Below are positions 3,001 through 61,777 of a stretch of DNA of 64,000 bases, piece by piece (the stretch's first letter is position 1; the number at the start of each line of letters is the position of its first letter). The notes under the pieces were generated by a model that saw only the letters and a list, made by a program, of their open reading frames with translations, made no database searches and was not told the DNA's origin. The DNA lies in IMG/VR virus record IMGVR_UViG_3300037808_000364, positions 32,001-96,000 of that record; one strand, written 5' to 3'. Source of the stretch: a virus. The position numbers were made by a program, and so were the translations under genes.

Positions 3001-5994
3001 GCTAGCAGCACTAACATTCCCAAAGTTGATATTTTGCGTGTCTTGTGAGATTCTTACTGAACGATCAAAAGCGTCAGCAATCTTACCATAGAGAGGATTA
3101 CCCACAAAATTAACCGCACCACTAGCTAATGATGTCCAGTCAGAAGTTGTGTAACTACCACTATATCCGGGTAACTGACTTTGGAATAGGGTTCCGCTGG
3201 AATATCTCCAACCAACGTTGTGGTAGACTTCTGGCGTGGTAGCAAACAAACCACTAACCGTACCTAGGCCACTACCAAGCTCTGTGGATTGAACGTAGAG
3301 TCCATCAACATTATCAAAGCGGTAGTATCCAGATAGGAATGGGTAATCAATTATTGGGTTCTCAAATCCAAAGCCGAACATATCAGGGTCGTATGGGCCG
3401 CAAACCGTACCCTCTGACCCACGCCATCTTCTAGCGTAGTTACTCTTTATTGTACCATCCGAAGTATAAGAATGGATTCCACTGATTGAGGATAGAGGAC
3501 CGTAACCACTACCAGCATTTAGGATATCGTCTGTAGACCCCATAGATGTTGGGTATAGGGCCGCTTCCGATCTACCGTCTTGGACCTTCCCAAACTTTTT
3601 TCCGCCCTGAGTGAAGAGATTAAGGGCGTTTGAGGGTGCGTACCTTACACATAGTTCAGTGTAAGCAATGGAAGCACCGCTAGGAAGTGGGAAGATATCT
3701 AGATAGATCTTCTCTAGGTATGAACTCATTGAGTAGTCTTGAGATAACCCAAGGCGTACATCATCATCCAGAATCTGAAGAGGAACTTCATACCACGCAA
3801 ATTCTGTACCACTGACTACGGGGTATTGAGTAAGTGAATAATGGTCACCACCAGAATTACCGCTAGCTTCCCAGTAGTCTTCATGTTCAGATAAGCTACC
3901 ACCGGCCACTATGTAATCATCATCGTCAGAATAAAACCCTGAGATAACAGGGTGAGATCCAACACTCCCAACGTATTGATCGTTTAGGAATACGCCCGAT
4001 GGATTTTGTAGGAAACCGCCAGACGGAGAGGTGTCATGCAGGAGCTTATCTTCGCTGTAGCCAACAACATCAAGTACATAGTCTCTAGTTCCAAACGCTT
4101 TCTTAGCTAGAACTTTAAGTGTAATGGTGTCTACAGTGTAGAATATTGAGTCGTTTTTATGAACATTTTCCCTACGGTTTTCTGTGTTGAAAGCACCGCT
4201 GGGACTGAACCACATATTATTAGTAGACTGATCAAACTGATAGTTGAATGCTCCTTGAGTAATTTCGTCTACATTAGTGGAACATTCTCCAAAACGCAGC
4301 ATCAGCTTCCCTGAGTCAGCAACCCCACCCCCAGAAGCAGACTGAACTTTGATGAATCTTTGTGCTGTCGGAACCCCAAGGATTCTTACTAAGTCTTGAG
4401 CACCACATATATCTTCATTTGTAACACCTAGTGGGCTAGCAGCAGAATCAACATCGTCAACCCAAACAGTGTCTACGGACGGATAAATAGTAGTGTCAAA
4501 ATCATATTGAGGCATGAATTGGGCACGTATACATCTCTCTAGTCTTCTACCAGTAGATGGAACTTCCATGTAAGCTGGGAAGTAATCTTCGCGTCTAGGG
4601 CCGAATCCACCACTATTACAGATCTCAATTGCGGAAATTTTAAAACCGTTTGTGGGATTCAGAAACTTGACCTCTTGGGTCGATAGAGGAGCACCGTCTA
4701 GAGCCAAATAGTTGTTACCACTACCATCTGTCAGGATATCTGGTAGGATATAGTTTTCTTCAAACCCTTCACTGAAACCCTCTGTAAACGCATCGTCAAG
4801 AGATACAGCACGAACACTGAAGTGCAACTGATAACCGCTAACCATTTGCATGTGCGGTTTTGTTCTTCTATCCCAGTCATAATCATCTATCGCATTAGAT
4901 TCAGGAAGTGATGAATATGTGGAGAACTTAGATTGATCTACAGTGGAGTCGCCCTTCAGTGATATATCATTATACTTGACAATCAGATTTCCAGATGGGT
5001 CCAGCAGTTGAATATTGTAAACAGTGTAGAGAGGAGGTACGCTAGATTCATAGTTCTCTAACGGTGCAGCTACCCTCATTCTTAGGGCTGTGTAGTCTGG
5101 ACGTACGTTTAGATTAGTAAGATCGCACTTATACTGAAATAGACCCTCTGTATGAACCGTATCAGGGTTTATGTAAGAGGTTACGTCATCACTAAGGGTC
5201 ACGGAGTCACCGCCATCCTTAAGGATGCCCTCATATACACCCTCATCAATGAAGCTGTATAGACCTGAAGTTTCAGCTAGTGGACCTACAAATGAACCAA
5301 ACCCAGAAGCTACGGGTAAGTCAGCCTGAGGATATAGTTTTTCTTGGCACTTGAAATCACCAAACTCACCAGCAACCTTATCTATGTCTAAGACATTAAG
5401 ATTACCCTCAAGTGTGAGTAGTTCACTAAGAGCATAGTCTACCTTTATACCGTCATCCAGTTCACCCTCTGCGTCTAGCGATATGTCGATTGGGATGAAG
5501 GATGTAAGTCTACTCTCTACCTCAGACAAGAACGTAAGGGTCGCCTCCATAGCTGCTGCCGTGGAGATGATAGGGGCCGTCTCTGGACACGAACCGTCTA
5601 ACCTGATAGCATCTAATGCCTCAATCTGACGGTCCACAGCGTCTGTGCTGGATGTGTACTGAAGAGTAACGTCACAACCATTAATAGATACCACTGAGTA
5701 GTAGTAGGTTTGATAGTTGGCAGAGATCTCTGCTACCCACGTATCATCCAAACAAGTACAGTCGCATCCATTCAGCGTCACAGTGTAAAGAGGGCCAGAG
5801 CCAACAACAGCCGAAACAGTGTCCATACAGAATTCAGCTACAGGTGGAGATGTAAGCTCACCCTCAGCCTGTATGGTGGTACCCATATTAGCTTCAATGA
5901 TCATGTGAGCAGTAAACTCACCCCCAGCGGAACACGAAGCGTCCGTTGCTTTGAGGCAGCTACATTCTAAAGCTACGTGATGTTCACCTGACAT
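1..5994 (-). CDS. Large tail tip/hub-type structural protein (>=1998 aa, truncated at window edge) with LamG-like and FG-GAP-like segments
   Basis: ATG at 5994 (MSGEHHVALECSCLK...) after an AGGAAA RBS, just downstream of the tape measure stop. The frame is open where sampled, and the track lists no stop-terminated ORF in this frame. FG-GAP-like GDEYGSQVSVKGDLMAISAPH...GAGSVFLY near 170-340; LamG-like FSVFVRF...DFALGY...LKLYTD near 2720-3000. Confidence 0.8.
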   Translation of the reverse strand, partial: MSGEHHVALECSCLKATDASCSAGGEFTAHMIIEANMGTTIQAEGELTSPPVAEFCMDTVSAVVGSGPLYTVTLNGCDCTCLDDTWVAEISANYQTYYYSVVSINGCDVTLQYTSSTDAVDRQIEALDAIRLDGSCPETAPIISTAAAMEATLTFLSEVESRLTSFIPIDISLDAEGELDDGIKVDYALSELLTLEGNLNVLDIDKVAGEFGDFKCQEKLYPQADLPVASGFGSFVGPLAETSGLYSFIDEGVYEGILKDGGDSVTLSDDVTSYINPDTVHTEGLFQYKCDLTNLNVRPDYTALRMRVAAPLENYESSVPPLYTVYNIQLLDPSGNLIVKYNDISLKGDSTVDQSKFSTYSSLPESNAIDDYDWDRRTKPHMQMVSGYQLHFSVRAVSLDDAFTEGFSEGFEENYILPDILTDGSGNNYLALDGAPLSTQEVKFLNPTNGFKISAIEICNSGGFGPRREDYFPAYMEVPSTGRRLERCIRAQFMPQYDFDTTIYPSVDTVWVDDVDSAASPLGVTNEDICGAQDLVRILGVPTAQRFIKVQSASGGGVADSGKLMLRFGECSTNVDEITQGAFNYQFDQSTNNMWFSPSGAFNTENRRENVHKNDSIFYTVDTITLKVLAKKAFGTRDYVLDVVGYSEDKLLHDTSPSGGFLQNPSGVFLNDQYVGSVGSHPVISGFYSDDDDYIVAGGSLSEHEDYWEASGNSGGDHYSLTQYPVVSGTEFAWYEVPLQILDDDVRLGLSQDYSMSSYLEKIYLDIFPLPSGASIAYTELCVRYAPSNALNLFTQGGKKFGKVQDGRSEAALYPTSMGSTDDILNAGSGYGPLSSISGIHSYTSDGTIKSNYARRWRGSEGTVCGPYDPDMFGFGFENPIIDYPFLSGYYRFDNVDGLYVQSTELGSGLGTVSGLFATTPEVYHNVGWRYSSGTLFQSQLPGYSGSYTTSDWTSLASGAVNFVGNPLYGKIADAFDRSVRISQDTQNINFGNVSAASGFSVFVRFTPDPTVSGVGYDLFQSGVICSKWDTPSQLDFALGYSGGYLCGYARDTSNNIISIADTVPYSGYQFPLNAILTYNDHQSSGLKLYTDNEFLSPFNVLRASSVPFRKADTNADLTLGWSAGSGVGMNMLVSEFGISSWSSGVKTLYGSGTNIVESNADKTYKGVTAEKFLENSRVKFFDPSESYTNDRYKLWDRVNEDTYNDWALGAFEHCQFGMGYDQWQLRPNTEHIIFDIQHSGTSYSNSVDLPTPSAIDSGVSYHTQLENDFLRFHLSDIPNNFYAVNRRITKNIPCGYTFSENAIVVESVVSHKTGMGISWSGCGDVLPSGPRMIVSLYTKNQDPYWTPDEPNWGLVNRKSHYLKPSGCIQKLESSFTYDDICDETEAWSLFPSEPRVKDFSERYFSDDVNDMFVQYDLVYPSGPAYSSKIELHSSHVRMEDANVCDVDVSGTMNLYASGAFPSESQLNLNVGGFPQDSSGTLPLTMNIPLPYDVFATAPSGFTLNLQGAFVSTETLPLFTPHQSGVETFTLNISGEIPSSLSNSMSLALPEILGRHDTSDDFDPLTTLGGSGTFFGMPLTMFNADVATTPTGPVLRLNTFASSSGSTGLQSTTPLTLWNSIQDLTTSNASGDVNLNLLGGNTVTKRRFVGSMPMFINAPNVMNVEVPLYLHNPAVEALSSGTMNLVTANYSSNFGSAFGLWYNNNYGTGIELTDDHVATLDVTNEIRGVDLTGYGSCTGNSPSKAVDPILRTDCTTWRAATCNDGGIFRATETYTNSGAINFSGGLGYSGNYYGLRKYTELMPSVAYNATMTIKTGSIDPISVPPTFEEWGYGMCGTDWDCCTEDCDQDLVFSGVKFIGDDAASVAPSANLTVDSPFIVASGRSAGDEYGSQVSVKGDLMAISAPHMTIPEFDQNRVDAFGNADPGMVDVSGAGSVFLYRRGTDVAGKSASWNLIEPLTLPTGFRKDYIQRTAENLLTFDQFSISGNKWQIGQEGREF

Positions 5995-6009: not shown

Positions 6010-9000
6010 TTAAGCGAGTACCCCGCCCTTGCGTGTCAAATCACCACTACTGTTAAATTTGGACCTACCTATTTCTTTTCCAACTTCTGCTAACAACTCG
6101 TCCTTAATGTTTTGCTTCATAGACTCTAAGAAGCTACCGTTTACTAGGTTTACATTTACATTTGTGGTGTCCAGTTTAACGCTAAAGTTAGTGTTTGCCA
6201 GTTTGTCTACAGCACTAGAAAAATCAGAAAATACATTTCTAAGTGCTGGTATAGCATCTGTAAGCATGTTGCTAGACCCCTCAACTGGGCCTCCACCATT
6301 ACGACGTGCTCTACCTCCACCACGCATATAACCGGGACCACTTGCTCCTCCACCAGAGTTCATGGCTCTTAACATCTGTAAATTATTACCACGCTGAACT
6401 GCTGAACGATTTACCACAAACTCACCCGGTGTCAGCATAGCAGGAACAGTGTCAGTACCACGGGGCACAAACATTCCGTTGTTAGCATAGACCGTTCCAC
6501 CTTTAGCTAGTCCCTGATTCGCATTAGCTATATTACCCAACTCTTTAGTAAATACAACCTCACTAGCAATAATGGTAGCCTTATTGACAGCTATCTCAGA
6601 CACATCAAATTGAGCACCCTGTCCAGCTAAATCACCAAGCACCCCAGCTAGCTCTCTACCCTCAGCCTTGAACGCTTCTTGCTCGGGAGTTGTACCAGAC
6701 AAAGCACCGTTTCCTGTAATCCCGAACCTTTTGAGGGTTTCATCTTCCGCAGAACGTAGTTGTTTGTCAGACAACCCTTGCCCCTTCAAACTCTTAAACC
6801 CGGCACCTAGTGCAGACCCTGAGAACAAGCTCGTGAGTCCAGAAGAACCAGACCTTAGGGCCGCACCAGCACCAGCCGCAGCTTGACCCTCAATAAATCC
6901 CTGAACATCTCCACTAATCAGTTTCTCAAGTGAACTCTTTTCTTCTCTGTTCTTAGCTTGAACAATGGTTAACTCTTCTTTAAGAAGTGAGATCCTTTGT
7001 TTTGTGAAAGTTATAAGTGCAGCATTAGCACGTTGAGCCTCTGGACGTTGATCATTCTGAACCCCTTCTGGACCCGCAAAAATACCAGCACCACCAGTAG
7101 CAGAGCGTCCAGCAATGTCTCGAACAAACGCCCCCTGTTGTGAGTTAAACGTATTAGTAATCTCCGTAGCCACACGTCTAATATCGCCAGCACCTCCACC
7201 TTTAAGGCTAGCTCCAAGACCACCCAAGCCGCCGACGTTGTTAAACTGTGAAATTCTAGCTTGTGTTTGCTGTTGAGTTGTAAGTCTGGCACCACCAAAC
7301 GCTTCGAATGCCTTACCAGCTTCAATCTGAGTGTCAATAGCTTTATTTAGAGATTCAGCGGCAGTCGCTTCTACCTTCTCACGCTCTTGGTAGAGCTTAG
7401 ACATTGTGACGTTATGTTGTGACTGTAGCTTGGCCGCTTCAAAGAAACCGGAAGATAACGCTTGAGCGTCTGTACCAATTTTCTGGATTAGCTTAGAAAT
7501 ATCAGTAGTAGCCAGATCCTTTGGTTCTATAGCACTTACGTTCGAACTGATAAGATCTCTAATTTGCTTTCTGATTTCAGGGGAAGCATCTGCCGGAATA
7601 GCTTCTACCAACGCTTCTGTCAGCTTACCCTTAGAAGCTGCTGGGTTACCTCTGTTAACATCAAAGTTGCTTACAATACCACCTATGTTCTGTGAGAACC
7701 CAGAAGAAGCCCTAGCGACATCCGCCTGTCCACTTAGGGCAGCAGCTAACCCGCCACCGCCAGCACCTCCAGCAGTAGATAGTAGTTGTTTTTCAATAGC
7801 GTCAATAGCAGCACCGGAATCTACACCAATATTCTTACGTGCAGACTCTAACTGTATGATATAACCCTCTAGAGAACTAGAGCCAGTAGTTAGTCCAGCG
7901 GTAAACGCCTTCACAGCCGCATTAGCACCACCAAACGCAGAAGTGATTTTCAGAGAATCAAAGTTAGCTTTTCCAAGTTGTACCTGAGCATCTCTTAGCG
8001 TAATAGAGACCCTCGCAAGTTTCAACATCTCCTCTTGGGTTTCTTGATTAGCACCAGCTAACCCTAAGGCAGCTTCTTCAGCTTGTGCTAAACTAGCTCC
8101 TGAACTAATTAAAGTAGTTAGGGTTTTTGCTGACTCTATATTTATCTTAGCTTCTTGTGATTTCTTATTTTTACCTTCTTCTAACTGTGCAACCTCAGAC
8201 CTAGCTTCATTAGTACCACCTAGTACTGTAGACAGAGCAGCTTGAACATTAATCCCTCCACCGTCTAGTTTGAATGGGTTATTATCTTTAGAGAGGGTTT
8301 TATTAAGATCTGAGAGATTTGAAGTAGCAGTATCTGCTGCTGTAGTAGCACGAGACTGCCTAACCTGTTTTGCTAGACCGTCGAAGAAATTGTTGGTGCC
8401 AGAAAACGCATCGGTAGCTATTTGAGCAAATCCACTCACAGAGAACGCATCCGTAATACCTTTCGCAAACGCACCAGCCCCAGCGGCATCCGCAGCACCA
8501 GAAACATCACCCTTATCTTTTGCTTGTTCAGCCTGTCTTTGGGATAGTTCTTGTACATACCCACCTATGGCGTTGGCTATACCCTTTATAGATACGATAG
8601 CAGCAGCAGCACCTGTAACAGCTTTACCCCCAAATTTAGCTGCACCAGCTAATCGTCGTCTCCTATTGGCTAATTTCTCTTCTGACTGAGCGGCTTTCAA
8701 TGCTGCTTTTTGAGATCTAACCCTCGCTCTCTCTAGAGACTTCTCGCCAGCCTGCACCGCTTTCAGTGTTTTACTATGTCTTTTTTGTGACGCGGTTCGA
8801 TTTTCAGTTAAGTTTTCACCCTGCTTAATGACCTTACTAGAGTCTTTAAACGCCACCTTCATATTATTGACATGTTGCGTCTGAAATTGTATTTCCTTTG
8901 AAAGTGCTTGCTGTTCTTTTAGAAGTTCCTTTGTGGATTTACCCCTGAAGCCCGGATGTGAACGTCTCTCCGAACCCTGTTGAATATCTTTAGCAGCAGC

Positions 9001-58529: not shown

Positions 58530-59309
58530 ATGGAAACAAAAACTTGTAAGGATTGTAACCAAATGAAACCCCTAGATGAATTTGGTATTGTGTCAAAAAA
58601 ACGTAGGGATAAATATGGCAATCCTTATCGCCGTGGTATATGTAGAGAGTGTCATTCCGCAGGGACGAGATCTTACTACAAAGAAAATTCAGAACAGTGT
58701 AAGGTAGCAATGAAACGTTGGTACAAAGAAAACAGAGAGAGATCATTAGAGCGTAGAAAGCAATGGTATAAAGAGAATAGAGAAGAAAGTCTAGAATACC
58801 AAAAGAGGTGGCGAAAAGAAAATCCAGAAAAGGCACGGGCACAATGTAAACGCTGGAGAGAAGAAAACAAGGAAAAGATGTACGAAATTAGCAGAAGGTA
58901 CTACTTGAATAACAAGCAGAAAGTTCATGCCTACACAACCAAATATGCCCGTGAACACGTACAGGTACGAATAGCGAAAAGCCTACGAAGCCGTCTTTCG
59001 CATGCTGTAAAAAATGCTGAGACTAAGAAGGTCGGATCAACGATGGGACTGGCTGGTTGTACTCTAAGTAAATTGAAACAACATCTTGAGGGCCAGTTTC
59101 AGGAGGGCATGACTTGGGACAACTACGGCTTTTACGGCTGGCATATAGATCACATAAAGCCATGTGCAGCGTTCGACATGACGAACGAGGAAGAACAGAG
59201 GGCCTGTTTTCATTATACCAACTTGCAGCCGCTGTGGGCCGCAGAGAATTTGTCCAAAAATGACACTTGGGAGGAAGTAGAAAGTGGATTTGATGAATTT
59301 CGAATTTGA
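58530..59309 (+). CDS. HNH/endonuclease VII-like homing nuclease (259 aa)
   Basis: N-terminal CxxC pairs, WYKENRE repeats, C-terminal HLE.QF..GMTWDNYG..WHIDHIKP...YTNLQPLWA.EN..K. Confidence 0.88.
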   Translation: METKTCKDCNQMKPLDEFGIVSKKRRDKYGNPYRRGICRECHSAGTRSYYKENSEQCKVAMKRWYKENRERSLERRKQWYKENREESLEYQKRWRKENPEKARAQCKRWREENKEKMYEISRRYYLNNKQKVHAYTTKYAREHVQVRIAKSLRSRLSHAVKNAETKKVGSTMGLAGCTLSKLKQHLEGQFQEGMTWDNYGFYGWHIDHIKPCAAFDMTNEEEQRACFHYTNLQPLWAAENLSKNDTWEEVESGFDEFRI

Positions 59310-59670
59310 AGAGAGACTGGAACAAGCCGTAGACGCTAACACGCTGTTCTACGATGAGGAGAGCGATAATATATCCAAGAAGCTGATATATCTCATGTGG
59401 GGACATTCTAGGGACCGTCTGGAGACTATCCTTATACCGACGGATCTTTATCCGGAGTTTGATATTTGGGGAGAGACTAGATATGGTAAGACTACAGGGG
59501 CATATTTGGGCATTGAGTATATAAGAGATCGCAGGCTTGATCTTGAAAATGTTCAGGGTCTTATTAAGGAGTATGGAATGTCTATGCCAGTTAAGCACTC
59601 CGGGATGCTGCCTAAAAAACAGTTGGTTATGGGGATTTATAGGGACAAGACGATTCTGGGGGCTGTGTAA
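59284..59670 (+). CDS. Small paralog of the MCP A-domain (125-128 aa)
   Basis: Colinear motif matches to the C-terminal half of the MCP (see findings); overlaps both flanking genes; ATG 59293 is an alternative start. Confidence 0.65.
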   Translation: MDLMNFEFEERLEQAVDANTLFYDEESDNISKKLIYLMWGHSRDRLETILIPTDLYPEFDIWGETRYGKTTGAYLGIEYIRDRRLDLENVQGLIKEYGMSMPVKHSGMLPKKQLVMGIYRDKTILGAV

Positions 59671-60509
59671 TGGATACGAGGAAATGTAAAGAATGCGAAG
59701 AAACCCTACCTATTGAGAATTTCGGTAAGGATTACAGGGGGTGTACGAGGACTCGTTGTATGCCGTGTTATAAGGTAGTAAAAAAGAAGCAAAAGAAAGA
59801 GTGGTATGAAAAAAATAAGGAGGCCGTTGCTAAGGAAAATGAGAGGTATCGTAGAAGCGTGGGTATAAAACCTAGGGTTAAAAGGGGTCCGAATGGTTAC
59901 GAAACCTCAGTGTGTCGTGTGTGTGATATAGTCATTCCTCAGGACGAACTCTCCCCTAGTCAAAAGGGGCTAAAAACGTCAATTTGTAAACCCTGCTCAA
60001 GAGAGAGGGGCAAGAATAGGTATAAGGAAAACCCTAAGGTGAGAGAATACCACCGTCAGAGGTATCTCAATAACCGAGAGGAAGCCATTAGGTATTCCGC
60101 CCAGTGGAAGAAAGACAATCCTGAGAAACGTAGGGAGCATAAGAGAAAGTACCGTCAAAAAATAAATGAGAGAATCAGAAGACAACAGAGTAAGAGGGTT
60201 TCAGAAGCCCTTAAATCCATAGGGTGTAGAAAAAAATACTCTGTTTTGAAGTATTTAGGTTGTACTGCTGTCGAATTGATTAAACATCTTGAGGGTCAGT
60301 TTCAAGATGGTATGAATTGGGACAATTACGGGGTAAATGAAGAGAACTGGAAACTAGCGTGGCAGATAGATCATATCAAACCACTTAATAGCTTCGATCT
60401 GAGTCAGGAATCCGAGCAGATGGCTTGTTTTAACTATACCAATTTACAACCTTTGTGGGCCGAGGAAAATCTGAGAAAATCGGATAGCTACGACGAGGAG
60501 AATGACTAG
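59670..60509 (+). CDS. HNH/endonuclease VII-like homing nuclease, paralog (279 aa)
   Basis: Two Zn-finger-like units; same C-terminal WQIDHIKP...YTNLQPLWAEEN. Confidence 0.88.
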   Translation: MDTRKCKECEETLPIENFGKDYRGCTRTRCMPCYKVVKKKQKKEWYEKNKEAVAKENERYRRSVGIKPRVKRGPNGYETSVCRVCDIVIPQDELSPSQKGLKTSICKPCSRERGKNRYKENPKVREYHRQRYLNNREEAIRYSAQWKKDNPEKRREHKRKYRQKINERIRRQQSKRVSEALKSIGCRKKYSVLKYLGCTAVELIKHLEGQFQDGMNWDNYGVNEENWKLAWQIDHIKPLNSFDLSQESEQMACFNYTNLQPLWAEENLRKSDSYDEEND

Positions 60510-60699: not shown

Positions 60700-60891
60700 A
60701 TGACAAACAACAACACAGCACAGGAAAGCACGATGAACGAAGTAGCCGCAGCAGTCCAGAACATCATTGACACCAAATTCATCTCCTCTGGATTCGTTAT
60801 TCAGTTGACCATCGTCAACGAGTTGTCAGCAGCAGGGTTTGCAGTATCTCAGGAAAACATCGACAAAATTCAGGAAATGATTAACATCTAG
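60700..60891 (+). CDS. Early hypothetical protein (63 aa), paralog of 63419..63613
   Basis: Shared MTNNNT...MNE...FVI.LTI.N.L...G..V.Q.NIDKI. Confidence 0.75.
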   Translation: MTNNNTAQESTMNEVAAAVQNIIDTKFISSGFVIQLTIVNELSAAGFAVSQENIDKIQEMINI

Positions 60892-60893
60892 CC

Positions 60894-60921
60894 TTGTATC
60901 CTGTCGATAACTTGTTATAAT
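60894..60921 (+). promoter_or_regulatory. Early promoter TTGTAT-N16-TATAAT with extended -10
   Basis: TGnTATAAT; CGATAA in spacer as in sibling promoters. Confidence 0.75.
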
Positions 60922-60957
60922 ACACTCTCACAACAAACAACACACGAAAGCAAAACA

Positions 60958-61152
60958 ATGTTTACTACTCTCACCGAAATGTTCGACGCAGCTTACGACG
61001 GATCAATTGCAGGACGCACCGTATCCGCTGAACTCGCAGCAATGTTTGAGTGTTATGGAGGATGCTGGGTTGTTGAAGATTGGGACGGATTGGAAATCGA
61101 AATCAACATATCAACCCGAACCATCTTGGGAACCACCAAGTGGGGATGTTGA
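60958..61152 (+). CDS. Early hypothetical protein (64 aa)
   Basis: Own promoter and A/C-rich leader. Confidence 0.7.
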   Translation: MFTTLTEMFDAAYDGSIAGRTVSAELAAMFECYGGCWVVEDWDGLEIEINISTRTILGTTKWGC

Positions 61153-61165
61153 ATAGATACACTAT

Positions 61166-61311
61166 GGGGATGTGGCAACTAGTAGTCATGTTGCACCGGA
61201 AGGAATTCCGGCTTTATCTTTGGGCCTAACTTTCTAGAAGTGAAAGCCCTATCTGAGATTGATCATCTTAGACAATGATGAATGTGGGTGCGACTCCCAC
61301 CATCCCCAGCA
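61166..61311 (+). ncRNA. tRNA-like RNA lacking a canonical anticodon loop
   Basis: Acceptor stem GGGGATG/CATCCCC, D-like arm, T-arm GTGGG-TGCGACT-CCCAC, three internal hairpins. Confidence 0.65.
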
Positions 61312-61426
61312 TACAACGTAGGGCAACGTGCCTGAATAACGAGGCGTCTACTCAAATCCTCAACGCCTACAAGCCCGCAAGGGTGGAGATTGTAGTGGGG
61401 TATTAACTAACCAACTAAGGGATACC

Positions 61427-61777
61427 ATGACAAAGATCAAATCGTTTATTGATAACTTTCTGTTTCGCAAACTTAATCGGTTGAAGGGTGATGGTAAGAT
61501 GATAGCAACACAAATACCAATCAAGAGTAATCAGGATTACAGGGGAGATGCTCGCTTGTATAGGCTGAGTGAGCCAATGATGAACTACAACGGTGAGGCT
61601 TGTGGGTATGTACTAGTGAGTGCGTGCGATGTACCCTACAGTGGACCTGAGACATACATCTTCAGGGCCAATGCCAATGGTGACATTACTGATTGGTCTG
61701 AGCTTGAGGGTTCATTCAGAGGTGGGCTTGATCACGCTCAGGCTCTAGCTGATGCAGGCTATGACGTGCTGTCCTAG
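61427..61777 (+). CDS. Hypothetical phage protein (116 aa; may start at a later Met)
   Basis: ARLYRLS.P...YV.VSA...GPETYIF...G...DH..AL...GY pattern. Confidence 0.75.
   Translation: MTKIKSFIDNFLFRKLNRLKGDGKMIATQIPIKSNQDYRGDARLYRLSEPMMNYNGEACGYVLVSACDVPYSGPETYIFRANANGDITDWSELEGSFRGGLDHAQALADAGYDVLS

Follow-up and report, generated by a model that had tools for sequence, protein, structure and literature searches.

The 64,000-nucleotide (nt) stretch of DNA analyzed here (the window) covers positions 32001-96000 of IMG/VR record IMGVR_UViG_3300037808_000364, a 112-kilobase (kb) phage record estimated to be approximately 67% complete. On its plus strand, at 61166-61311, lies a gene for a 146-nt RNA shaped like a transfer RNA (tRNA), present in a single copy in the whole record. 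This RNA is very probably a derivative of leucine tRNA (tRNA-Leu) that is non-decoding and maintained by selection.

The minimum free energy (MFE) fold of the 61166-61311 RNA has an energy of -53.2 kcal/mol (z = -3.35), and one of 200 shuffled sequences was equally stable. It is a five-way junction that recovers all of the helices read from the sequence. An earlier note, made from the letters of the sequence, had listed the acceptor stem, a TG linker, a D-like arm, a hairpin at 61196-61211, two extra hairpins, a T arm, and an A-GCA end, and each of these elements was found where that note had placed it (Table 1). The note had also pointed to the missing G3-U70 determinant of alanine tRNA, and the acceptor pair 3-70 is indeed G3-C70 rather than G3-U70. 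In addition, the fold contains a 6-base-pair (bp) helix, absent from the earlier note, which surrounds both extra hairpins; helix and hairpins form a single branched arm at the position of the variable arm. Thus, the two extra hairpins are present, but as parts of one branched class II variable arm.

The evidence for selection on this fold comes from a homologue. When metagenomes were scanned with the downstream protein as anchor, three contigs were obtained in which that protein is 87% identical. In two of them, L134 and L136, whose sequences agree throughout this region, positions 3730-3875 contain a 146-nt homologue, with a score of 137 bits against R1, a covariance model built from the window RNA alone. 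The window and L136 RNAs differ at 29 of 146 positions (80% identity). Although 21 of the 29 differences fall in paired positions, 43 of 46 base pairs are nevertheless kept. Six pairs were kept by changes on both sides, in the acceptor stem and three variable-arm helices: U6-A67 to A6-U67 in the acceptor of L136; U-A to C-G in the variable-arm base helix; G-C to A-U, C-G to A-U, and A-U to G-C in hairpin A; and U-A to C-G in hairpin B. The variable-arm domain thus holds five of these six double compensatory changes. Another six pairs, spread across several helices, were kept through one-sided changes, including acceptor pair G2-C71, which became G2-U71 in L136. Three pairs are broken, one in the upper anticodon stem and two in hairpin B (one of them beside the loop).

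When the same substitutions were placed at random in 100,000 simulations, the probability of obtaining at least six double changes was 6e-5, and that of keeping at least 43 pairs was 0.0016. In a control where the 3' partners were slid by one to three columns, pairing dropped from 96.7% to 39-54% and nearly all double changes vanished. The common structure lies no more than 3.4 kcal/mol from the MFE in both sequences. The stem of the D arm is invariant (the L136 D loop reads UAGCAGAC), and the T arm of L136 is the same apart from the final base of its loop. The remnant of the anticodon arm is 16 nt long in both homologues, its loop being GGAA in the window and GUAAU(U) in L136, where it comes with an A-C mismatch or a bulge. 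Because both copies already share the large insertion and the shortened anticodon arm, selection on the fold persisted after the loss of decoding. The two-sequence comparison argues for a selected structure over chance, a terminator, or a decaying pseudogene, and the covariation that the earlier note had proposed to look for is present between the two homologues.

The origin of the RNA can be traced as well. With R1, and with a second model, R2, each arm of real class II tRNAs finds its counterpart in the alignment; in the R1 alignment, the GGAA hairpin corresponds to the anticodon arm and the 6-bp helix to the variable arm. The R1 scores were 41 bits for T4 tRNA-Ser, 28.5 bits for T4 tRNA-Leu, and 34 and 28 bits for tRNA-Leu(UAA) of relatives of this phage. 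The complete relatives, G001 and G002, have four tRNAs each, including an 85-nt tRNA-Leu(UAA). When the 85 tRNA-homologous positions of the RNA were globally aligned with 20 phage tRNAs, the relatives' tRNA-Leu(UAA) came first, with 57-61 identical positions, and other tRNA-Leu genes came next. The element has in common with tRNA-Leu(UAA) of G002 the 5' block GAUGUGGC, with that of G001 the T arm GUGGG...CCCAC, and with the relatives' tRNA-Leu in general the anticodon stem (U/C)CGGA...UCCGG. The D-loop motif UAGGCAGAC of the relatives' tRNA-Leu(UAA) can be written UAG(G)CAGAC, and the L136 RNA has UAG-CAGAC, one G fewer. A73 is present, and CCA is not encoded, in the element as in the real tRNA-Leu genes of the relatives; thus, the missing CCA is normal for the lineage and not a defect. 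By these sequence comparisons, the element derives from a class II phage tRNA of the leucine type, and its best match among the 20 is tRNA-Leu(UAA) of the lineage itself.

From the tRNA, the element has kept its 7-bp acceptor stem and discriminator A73 as well as the stem of the anticodon arm and the T arm. Compared with tRNA-Leu, the D arm has been remodelled and has a 5-bp stem, the D loop has a single G in place of GG, U55 is replaced by G, the anticodon arm is one base short, and the loop of the variable arm is approximately 58 nt longer and forms two hairpins. In the window copy, the remnant of the anticodon arm folds as a 6-bp hairpin capped by GGAA (CCGGAA-GGAA-TTCCGG). The earlier note had seen here a GNRA hairpin substituted for the anticodon arm; there is a hairpin at this site, but it is the ancestral anticodon stem itself, and its GGAA loop is not conserved. 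A T loop of the UGCGA type, with G at the U55 site, is frequent in 3' ends (...CGCCTCC-ACCA) resembling those of transfer-messenger RNA (tmRNA) among the IMG/VR matches L152-L213, and it also occurs in whole phage tRNA arrays, for example in L193. Therefore, G55 alone does not mark an RNA as non-functional. The T arm of the element is itself also seen in phage tRNAs.

Despite its supported descent, the element is not classed as a tRNA, because the defining 7-nt anticodon loop (with U33 and a purine at position 37) is missing: in both homologues the arm has 16 nt and an unconserved loop of 4-6 nt. The acceptor and T-arm part does have the form required of a tRNA, with a 7-bp acceptor stem on which a T arm with a 5-bp stem, a 7-nt loop, and the G53-C61 pair is stacked. 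The earlier description of the RNA as non-decoding and tRNA-shaped therefore stands, with a fold under selection. Neither the window nor the whole 112-kb record contains a tRNA or tmRNA detectable by ARAGORN at default settings, and no Rfam family (tRNA, tmRNA, Y RNA, or intron) matched the element at gathering scores, nor did Rfam call a tRNA, tmRNA, or Y RNA elsewhere in the record; thus, the element is not recognized as a standard or intron-containing tRNA at these thresholds. The Rfam tRNA model (RF00005) gave 9.4 bits against a cut-off of 29 and matched the T arm alone, and relaxed E-values returned noise-level matches centered on the T arm. A selenocysteine tRNA was also considered and rejected, as its model gave no match. 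The suggestion of a Y-RNA-like molecule was dropped: neither a match to YrlA (RF02553) nor a Ro/TROVE gene was found in the approximately 67%-complete record.

How might such an RNA be made and used? A sigma-70-type promoter near 60894-60922 would drive its transcription together with that of small early genes. An acceptor/T-arm stack that has U at -1 and G at +1 would be a substrate of RNase P, and a CCA-less 3' end after A73 would be one of RNase Z and the CCA-adding enzyme. A cut by RNase P at U-1/G+1 would free the 5' end, and the 3' end would be formed by the route used for tRNAs without an encoded CCA, as for the real tRNAs of the lineage. The product, approximately 143-146 nt long, would persist as a tRNA look-alike with the expected stability of a tRNA. 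We consider the proposed identity together with this processing scheme likely.

Within the molecule, the top half would serve processing and stability, and the variable-arm domain would be the working part that binds a partner. Five of the six double compensations fall in this domain, which makes it more than filler and favors the binding of a partner, whether as bait or as scaffold. Accordingly, the role that we put forward, tentatively, is that of a bait or sponge for a host tRNA-binding factor or of a tRNA scaffold for a protein-binding domain. In a bolder version, which we regard as rather unlikely, non-decoding tRNA-Leu look-alikes would be a recurrent, independently evolved tool of phages, and the two hairpins that resemble anticodon stem-loops (loops UUCUAGR and YUGAUCA) would bait a host defence protein that cleaves or binds tRNA. 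Such baiting would account for an RNA that keeps every helix and yet diverges faster than its flanks.

Several points weigh against a selected tRNA-Leu derivative with a role of this kind. The covariation comes from two sequences, that is, from one independent homologue, and one member of this pair supplied the fold from which the tested structure derives. Five long relatives (two of them complete) lack the RNA, as do 39 further related records; because it is missing from the relatives and related records searched, it is a dispensable accessory gene of a narrow sub-lineage. The RNA is tied to no particular host factor. Finally, the changes at G18G19 and U55 hit elements that the leucyl-tRNA synthetase (LeuRS) of E. 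coli needs (PMC9976931), and the elbow may resemble that of a tRNA too little for some proteins that bind tRNA.

Other explanations have to be weighed against the same observations. The gene could be mRNA punctuation only, a tRNA-shaped RNase P/RNase Z site that separates the small upstream open reading frame (ORF) from the downstream gene and sets the stabilities of both, the excised RNA having no job of its own. This would fit its location within an operon without a promoter or terminator of its own, the strong conservation of the 13-nt leader and the 3' flank, and the cassette exchange described below, which halts at the 5' leader of the RNA. On the other hand, processing requires just the acceptor/T-arm stack and the elbow, and five of the six double compensations in a 70-nt variable arm would be superfluous for a pure processing site; we consider punctuation alone unlikely. 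A tRNA-Leu pseudogene in decay, carrying a junk insertion and without a function today, would be compatible with the absence of the RNA from most relatives, with the loss of the canonical loop length, the GG, and U55, and with an identity of 80% against 97-99% in the flanks. Neutral decay, however, would not be expected to leave six double and six single pair-keeping changes against three disruptive ones, all accumulated since the shared insertion and the shortened loop, and this makes a pseudogene very improbable. An aminoacyl carrier acting off the ribosome, charged by LeuRS or seryl-tRNA synthetase without its anticodon being read and either feeding a non-ribosomal reaction or sequestering the synthetase, seems improbable to us. 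The class II ancestry and A73 suit such a carrier, and charging by LeuRS is possible in principle by E. coli rules: leucine identity in E. coli depends on A73, whereas anticodon and variable arm are dispensable, and charging persists in a truncated E. coli tRNA-Leu without either arm (PMC9976931). However, G18G19, G18:U55, and G19-C56 are important for leucylation in E. coli (PMC9976931). When the element is compared with this E. coli identity set, which may not be that of the host, it shows A73 and C56, a single G where the set has G18G19, and G at position 55; the loss of the G and the presence of G55 are common to both homologues. Moreover, no aminoacyl-transferase gene was seen among the approximately 36 proteins scanned.

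Two further proposals would assign the RNA to a known functional class. As a working decoder, it would either have its insertion spliced out as an intron or use a variable-arm hairpin (the UUCUAGR or the YUGAUCA loop) as its anticodon arm. Indeed, ARAGORN with a lowered threshold and introns allowed proposes a tRNA-Val(GAC) with a 70-nt intron, and each of the variable-arm loops can be depicted as a 7-nt loop that includes U33. However, that tRNA-Val model appears only below threshold and has a poor anticodon stem, whereas the default search with introns finds nothing; group I intron and bulge-helix-bulge motifs are both absent; removal of the insert still leaves a 16-nt arm; the YUGAUCA loop carries C37; and the large structural genes have uninterrupted frames under the standard code, which leaves no need for a suppressor. 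A decoding function is thus highly improbable. Lower still do we place a reduced or unusual tmRNA, which we find barely credible. Relatives of the phage do encode permuted tmRNAs, the T-arm sequence recurs in tmRNA 3' ends, and there is a noise-level match to the Rfam family tmRNA_permuted (11.8 bits, E = 5.9, cut-off 47). Against this, the acceptor has G3-C70 instead of G3-U70 (and G2-U71 in L136), a plausible tag reading frame is absent, covariation backs the unpermuted pairing of the acceptor with the upstream strand, and ARAGORN reports no tmRNA by default and only a minus-strand artefact at a lowered threshold. A selected, non-decoding derivative of tRNA-Leu remains the reading that we prefer.

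Table 1. Features of the tRNA-Leu-derived RNA and its flanks (window coordinates)
Feature	Position	Strand	Basis or remark
Likely promoter of the transcription unit of the RNA: TTGTAT, 17-nt spacer, TGn-TATAAT (extended -10)	60894..60922	+	Sequence; function inferred
5' leader, 13 nt, ATAGATACACTAT, U at -1	61153..61165	+	Same in L136
Acceptor stem, 5' strand GGGGAUG	61166..61172	+	Pairs with 61301-61307
UG linker	between acceptor 5' strand and D-like arm	+	Read from sequence, fold
Remodelled D arm, 5-bp stem GCAAC/GUUGC, 10-nt loop	61175..61194	+	Stem same in both homologues
Anticodon-arm remnant, 16 nt, CCGGA/UCCGG, loop of 4-6 nt instead of 7	61196..61211	+	Covariance-model alignment to class II tRNAs
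Expanded variable arm, 70 nt, three-way-junction domain	61213..61282	+	Where the relatives' tRNA-Leu carries a short variable arm
Variable-arm base helix, 6 bp	61213-61218 / 61277-61282	+	MFE fold
Variable-arm hairpin A: internal loops, loop containing CUA	61222-61249	+	Sequence, fold
Variable-arm hairpin B: loop YUGAUCA	61252-61272	+	Sequence, fold
T arm GUGGG-UGCGACU-CCCAC, abuts acceptor 3' strand	61284..61300	+	U54, C56, A58 kept; position 55 is G
Acceptor 3' strand CAUCCCC, discriminator A (61308), GCA trailer	61301..61311	+	CCA not encoded
Downstream segment, nearly invariant	61312..61413	+	One difference in about 105 nt from L136; homologous DNA otherwise 87-92% identical

The phage, a marine one, belongs to a large uncultured aquatic lineage: more than 590 IMG/VR contigs have a terminase that is 70-77% identical, and complete genomes measure 167-174 kb. 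No cultured relatives of the phage were found, and a BLAST search of the region against cultured phages gave no relatives, its matches being solely to the T-arm/acceptor part of phage tRNA-Leu genes. The structural genes occupy the minus strand up to approximately 57.9 kb of the window, and from approximately 58.1 kb the plus strand carries small ORFs and many near-consensus sigma-70 promoters. Early expression of the RNA, as had been proposed from the sequence, would fit a plus-strand region so rich in sigma-70-like promoters. The RNA sits between a 64-amino-acid (aa) ORF (60958-61152) and a gene that starts at 61427 or 61499 and ends at 61777; this downstream gene is a member of a widespread small phage protein family, and protein cluster P0001, encoded on 18 contigs, is 91% identical to its product. 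A consensus scan and reading of the sequence revealed no promoter or terminator that belongs to the RNA itself. The likely promoter of the transcription unit was overlooked by the consensus scan because its -35 hexamer agrees at only three of six positions; the promoter block GTCGATAACTTGTTATAATACACT is identical in L136. A scan of the window had listed the hairpin at 61196-61211 as an intrinsic terminator, but this reading fails because the U-rich stretch after the hairpin is weakened to CUCCAUCUUU in L136, where the loop and the top of the stem differ as well.

In L136, the 64-aa ORF is replaced by an unrelated 66-aa ORF (3496-3696). This is a clean cassette exchange: homology ends just past the common promoter and 5' untranslated region and restarts just 5' of the RNA leader. 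An 8-nt direct repeat, GGGGATGT, occurs at 61142-61149, at the end of the upstream ORF, and at 61166-61173, at the 5' end of the RNA; it is absent from L136 and is probably due to chance or a recombination scar. On the 3' side, the nearly invariant segment 61312-61413 may belong to the same transcript as the RNA. Its fold is not significant (z = +0.48), and it has no Rfam match. The loop of a hairpin AGGCGU/ACGCCU within it could pair with the downstream GGAGAUUGUAG to form a pseudoknot, and a 43-aa ORF (61275-61406) traverses the segment. A theta ribozyme of the hepatitis delta virus type was considered for this conserved flank and rejected, as there was no Rfam match and the P1 helix was unconvincing by eye. 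The RNA thus diverges faster (80% identity) than its flanks (97-99%), which points either to an older recombination block or to pressure to change while the fold is kept.

Two paralogous genes for HNH/EndoVII-like homing endonucleases (58530-59309 and 59670-60509) lie 0.7-2.6 kb upstream of the RNA; L134/L136 have weak partial matches to them, approximately 74-75% identical over about 115-145 nt. Homing-endonuclease genes also adjoin the tRNA-like RNAs of T4 (segB) and T5 (hegA, hegC, and hegD). Searches with Pfam and PHROGs of approximately 36 proteins of the record detected no tRNA-processing, RNA-repair, or aminoacyl-transfer enzyme; one protein gave a HAD/PNKP-phosphatase match, which was below threshold.

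The phyletic distribution of the RNA is narrow. Among 80 relatives anchored on the terminase, nothing was found by nhmmer, ARAGORN, R1, R2, or a structural descriptor that specifies a T arm with a tRNA-type loop followed by a strand pairing perfectly with a 7-mer located 60-260 nt upstream, and 51 loci anchored on the downstream gene family contain real tRNAs only. Over 1.06 Mb of DNA from related phages, the descriptor gave no match. Its hits within the 112-kb genome were the element, the element once more in a longer register that begins with the GGGGATG repeat upstream, and a chance match of 244 nt on the opposite strand. When IMG/VR was scanned for exact patterns, the four derived from the RNA and the one from its flank had no matches; the pattern GTGGGTGCGACNCCCAC had 62, all of them ordinary tRNAs, tmRNA-like 3' ends, or unrelated long tRNA-like genes. 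A pattern scan of a species-genome collection gave 13 matches, approximately the number expected by chance, none of which fitted R1. Two proteins, one encoded on either side of the RNA (60700-60891 and 61499-61777), were searched for in relatives with a 75% identical terminase, and neither was found there.

Several other RNA genes came to light in the relatives and in IMG/VR. The complete relatives G001 and G002 each encode a permuted two-piece tmRNA (L149:2266-2571 on the plus strand and L148:1290-1484 on the minus strand), with RF04321 scores of 91 and 81.7 bits and tags predicted by ARAGORN as AKPSFALAA and GVENYAMAA. These genes adjoin tRNA genes and, as in the latter, CCA is not encoded; a permuted tmRNA carried by a phage may also give a clue to the host group. 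Approximately 45-80 nt 3' of the relatives' tRNA-Leu(UAA), there is a conserved element, AAAGACGUAAYUGGGURCAGUCUUGCGUUCCUGACCCA (L150:670-740 and L151:530-600, minus strand), which can be drawn as an H-type pseudoknot in which ACGUAA pairs with UUGCGU and GGGU with ACCC. A jumbo-phage contig in IMG/VR (3300003310_000099, 373 kb) has three tRNA-shaped genes of 123-134 nt (L167:3331-3453, 3684-3810, and 6797-6930) in each of which acceptor stem and T arm are perfect and the D-loop region contains an insert of approximately 60 nt. Two copies have inserts that are clearly akin to each other, and the anticodon arm is intact in two (UCU and UUU). All three genes were missed by ARAGORN, and their neighbors are normal tRNA genes. 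Finally, a 154-kb phage contig encodes an 89-nt class II tRNA with the anticodon UAU (L110:1462-1550), a long variable arm being unusual for an isoleucine-type anticodon.

Among known systems, the element can be compared with several RNAs that contain a tRNA-like part. The tRNA-Leu(UAA) of the relatives (RF00005) differs from it in having a variable arm of approximately 15 nt, as opposed to a branched one of 70 nt, and a 7-nt anticodon loop. Like the element, tmRNA has a tRNA-like top half without an anticodon, and the T-arm sequence GUGGGUGCGACNCCCAC of the element recurs in tmRNA-like 3' ends in IMG/VR. Unlike tmRNA, including the permuted form of this lineage (RF04321), the element has no G3-U70, tag frame, or pseudoknots, is 146 nt long, and has kept the D and anticodon stems. 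YrlA (RF02553) is also a non-coding RNA with a tRNA-like module; however, its 5' and 3' ends form the Ro-binding helix and its tRNA-like part is internal, whereas the ends of the element form the acceptor stem.

The closest known cases are RNA1 and RNA2 of phage T5 and RNA C of phage T4, and the element is a new variant of such RNAs. The tRNA-like stable RNAs of T4 and T5 have been unexplained since the 1970s. T5 RNA1 and RNA2 (NC_005859, 30501-30644 and 32959-33083) are annotated as "tRNA-like stable RNA with unknown functions". Like the element, they are encoded by a phage, are 125-144 nt long (144 nt for RNA1), lack a usable anticodon, and have ends that form an acceptor-like stem on a T arm, with extra hairpins in the interior; in RNA1 the D arm is of the leucine type, and both phages have homing-endonuclease genes close by. 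On the other hand, RNA1 scores 13.7 bits against R1, below ordinary tRNAs, which indicates no specific homology. Its insert is at the site of the anticodon arm and it retains the GG and a canonical T loop, whereas the element has an anticodon stump and an expanded variable arm. Furthermore, the T5 RNAs are part of a tRNA cluster, and the record of this phage contains no tRNA. T4 RNA C (species 1 RNA, NC_000866, 70908-71046), a small stable RNA of 139 nt, resembles the element in its canonical T arm beside a terminal stem and in its internal hairpins, but it scores only 14.1 bits against R1, again below ordinary tRNAs, has no leucine-type D arm, and sits in the T4 tRNA cluster.

With a single instance and one homologue, the finding is a moderate one. 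What this case adds to those of T4 and T5 is an origin that can be traced to the lineage's own tRNA-Leu(UAA), evidence that structure was kept after the anticodon loop had been shortened, and a distinct architecture that combines the stump of an anticodon arm with a branched variable arm of 70 nt. If such RNAs do act as decoys or scaffolds directed at host tRNA-binding factors, they would represent a new class of RNA-based phage counter-measures.

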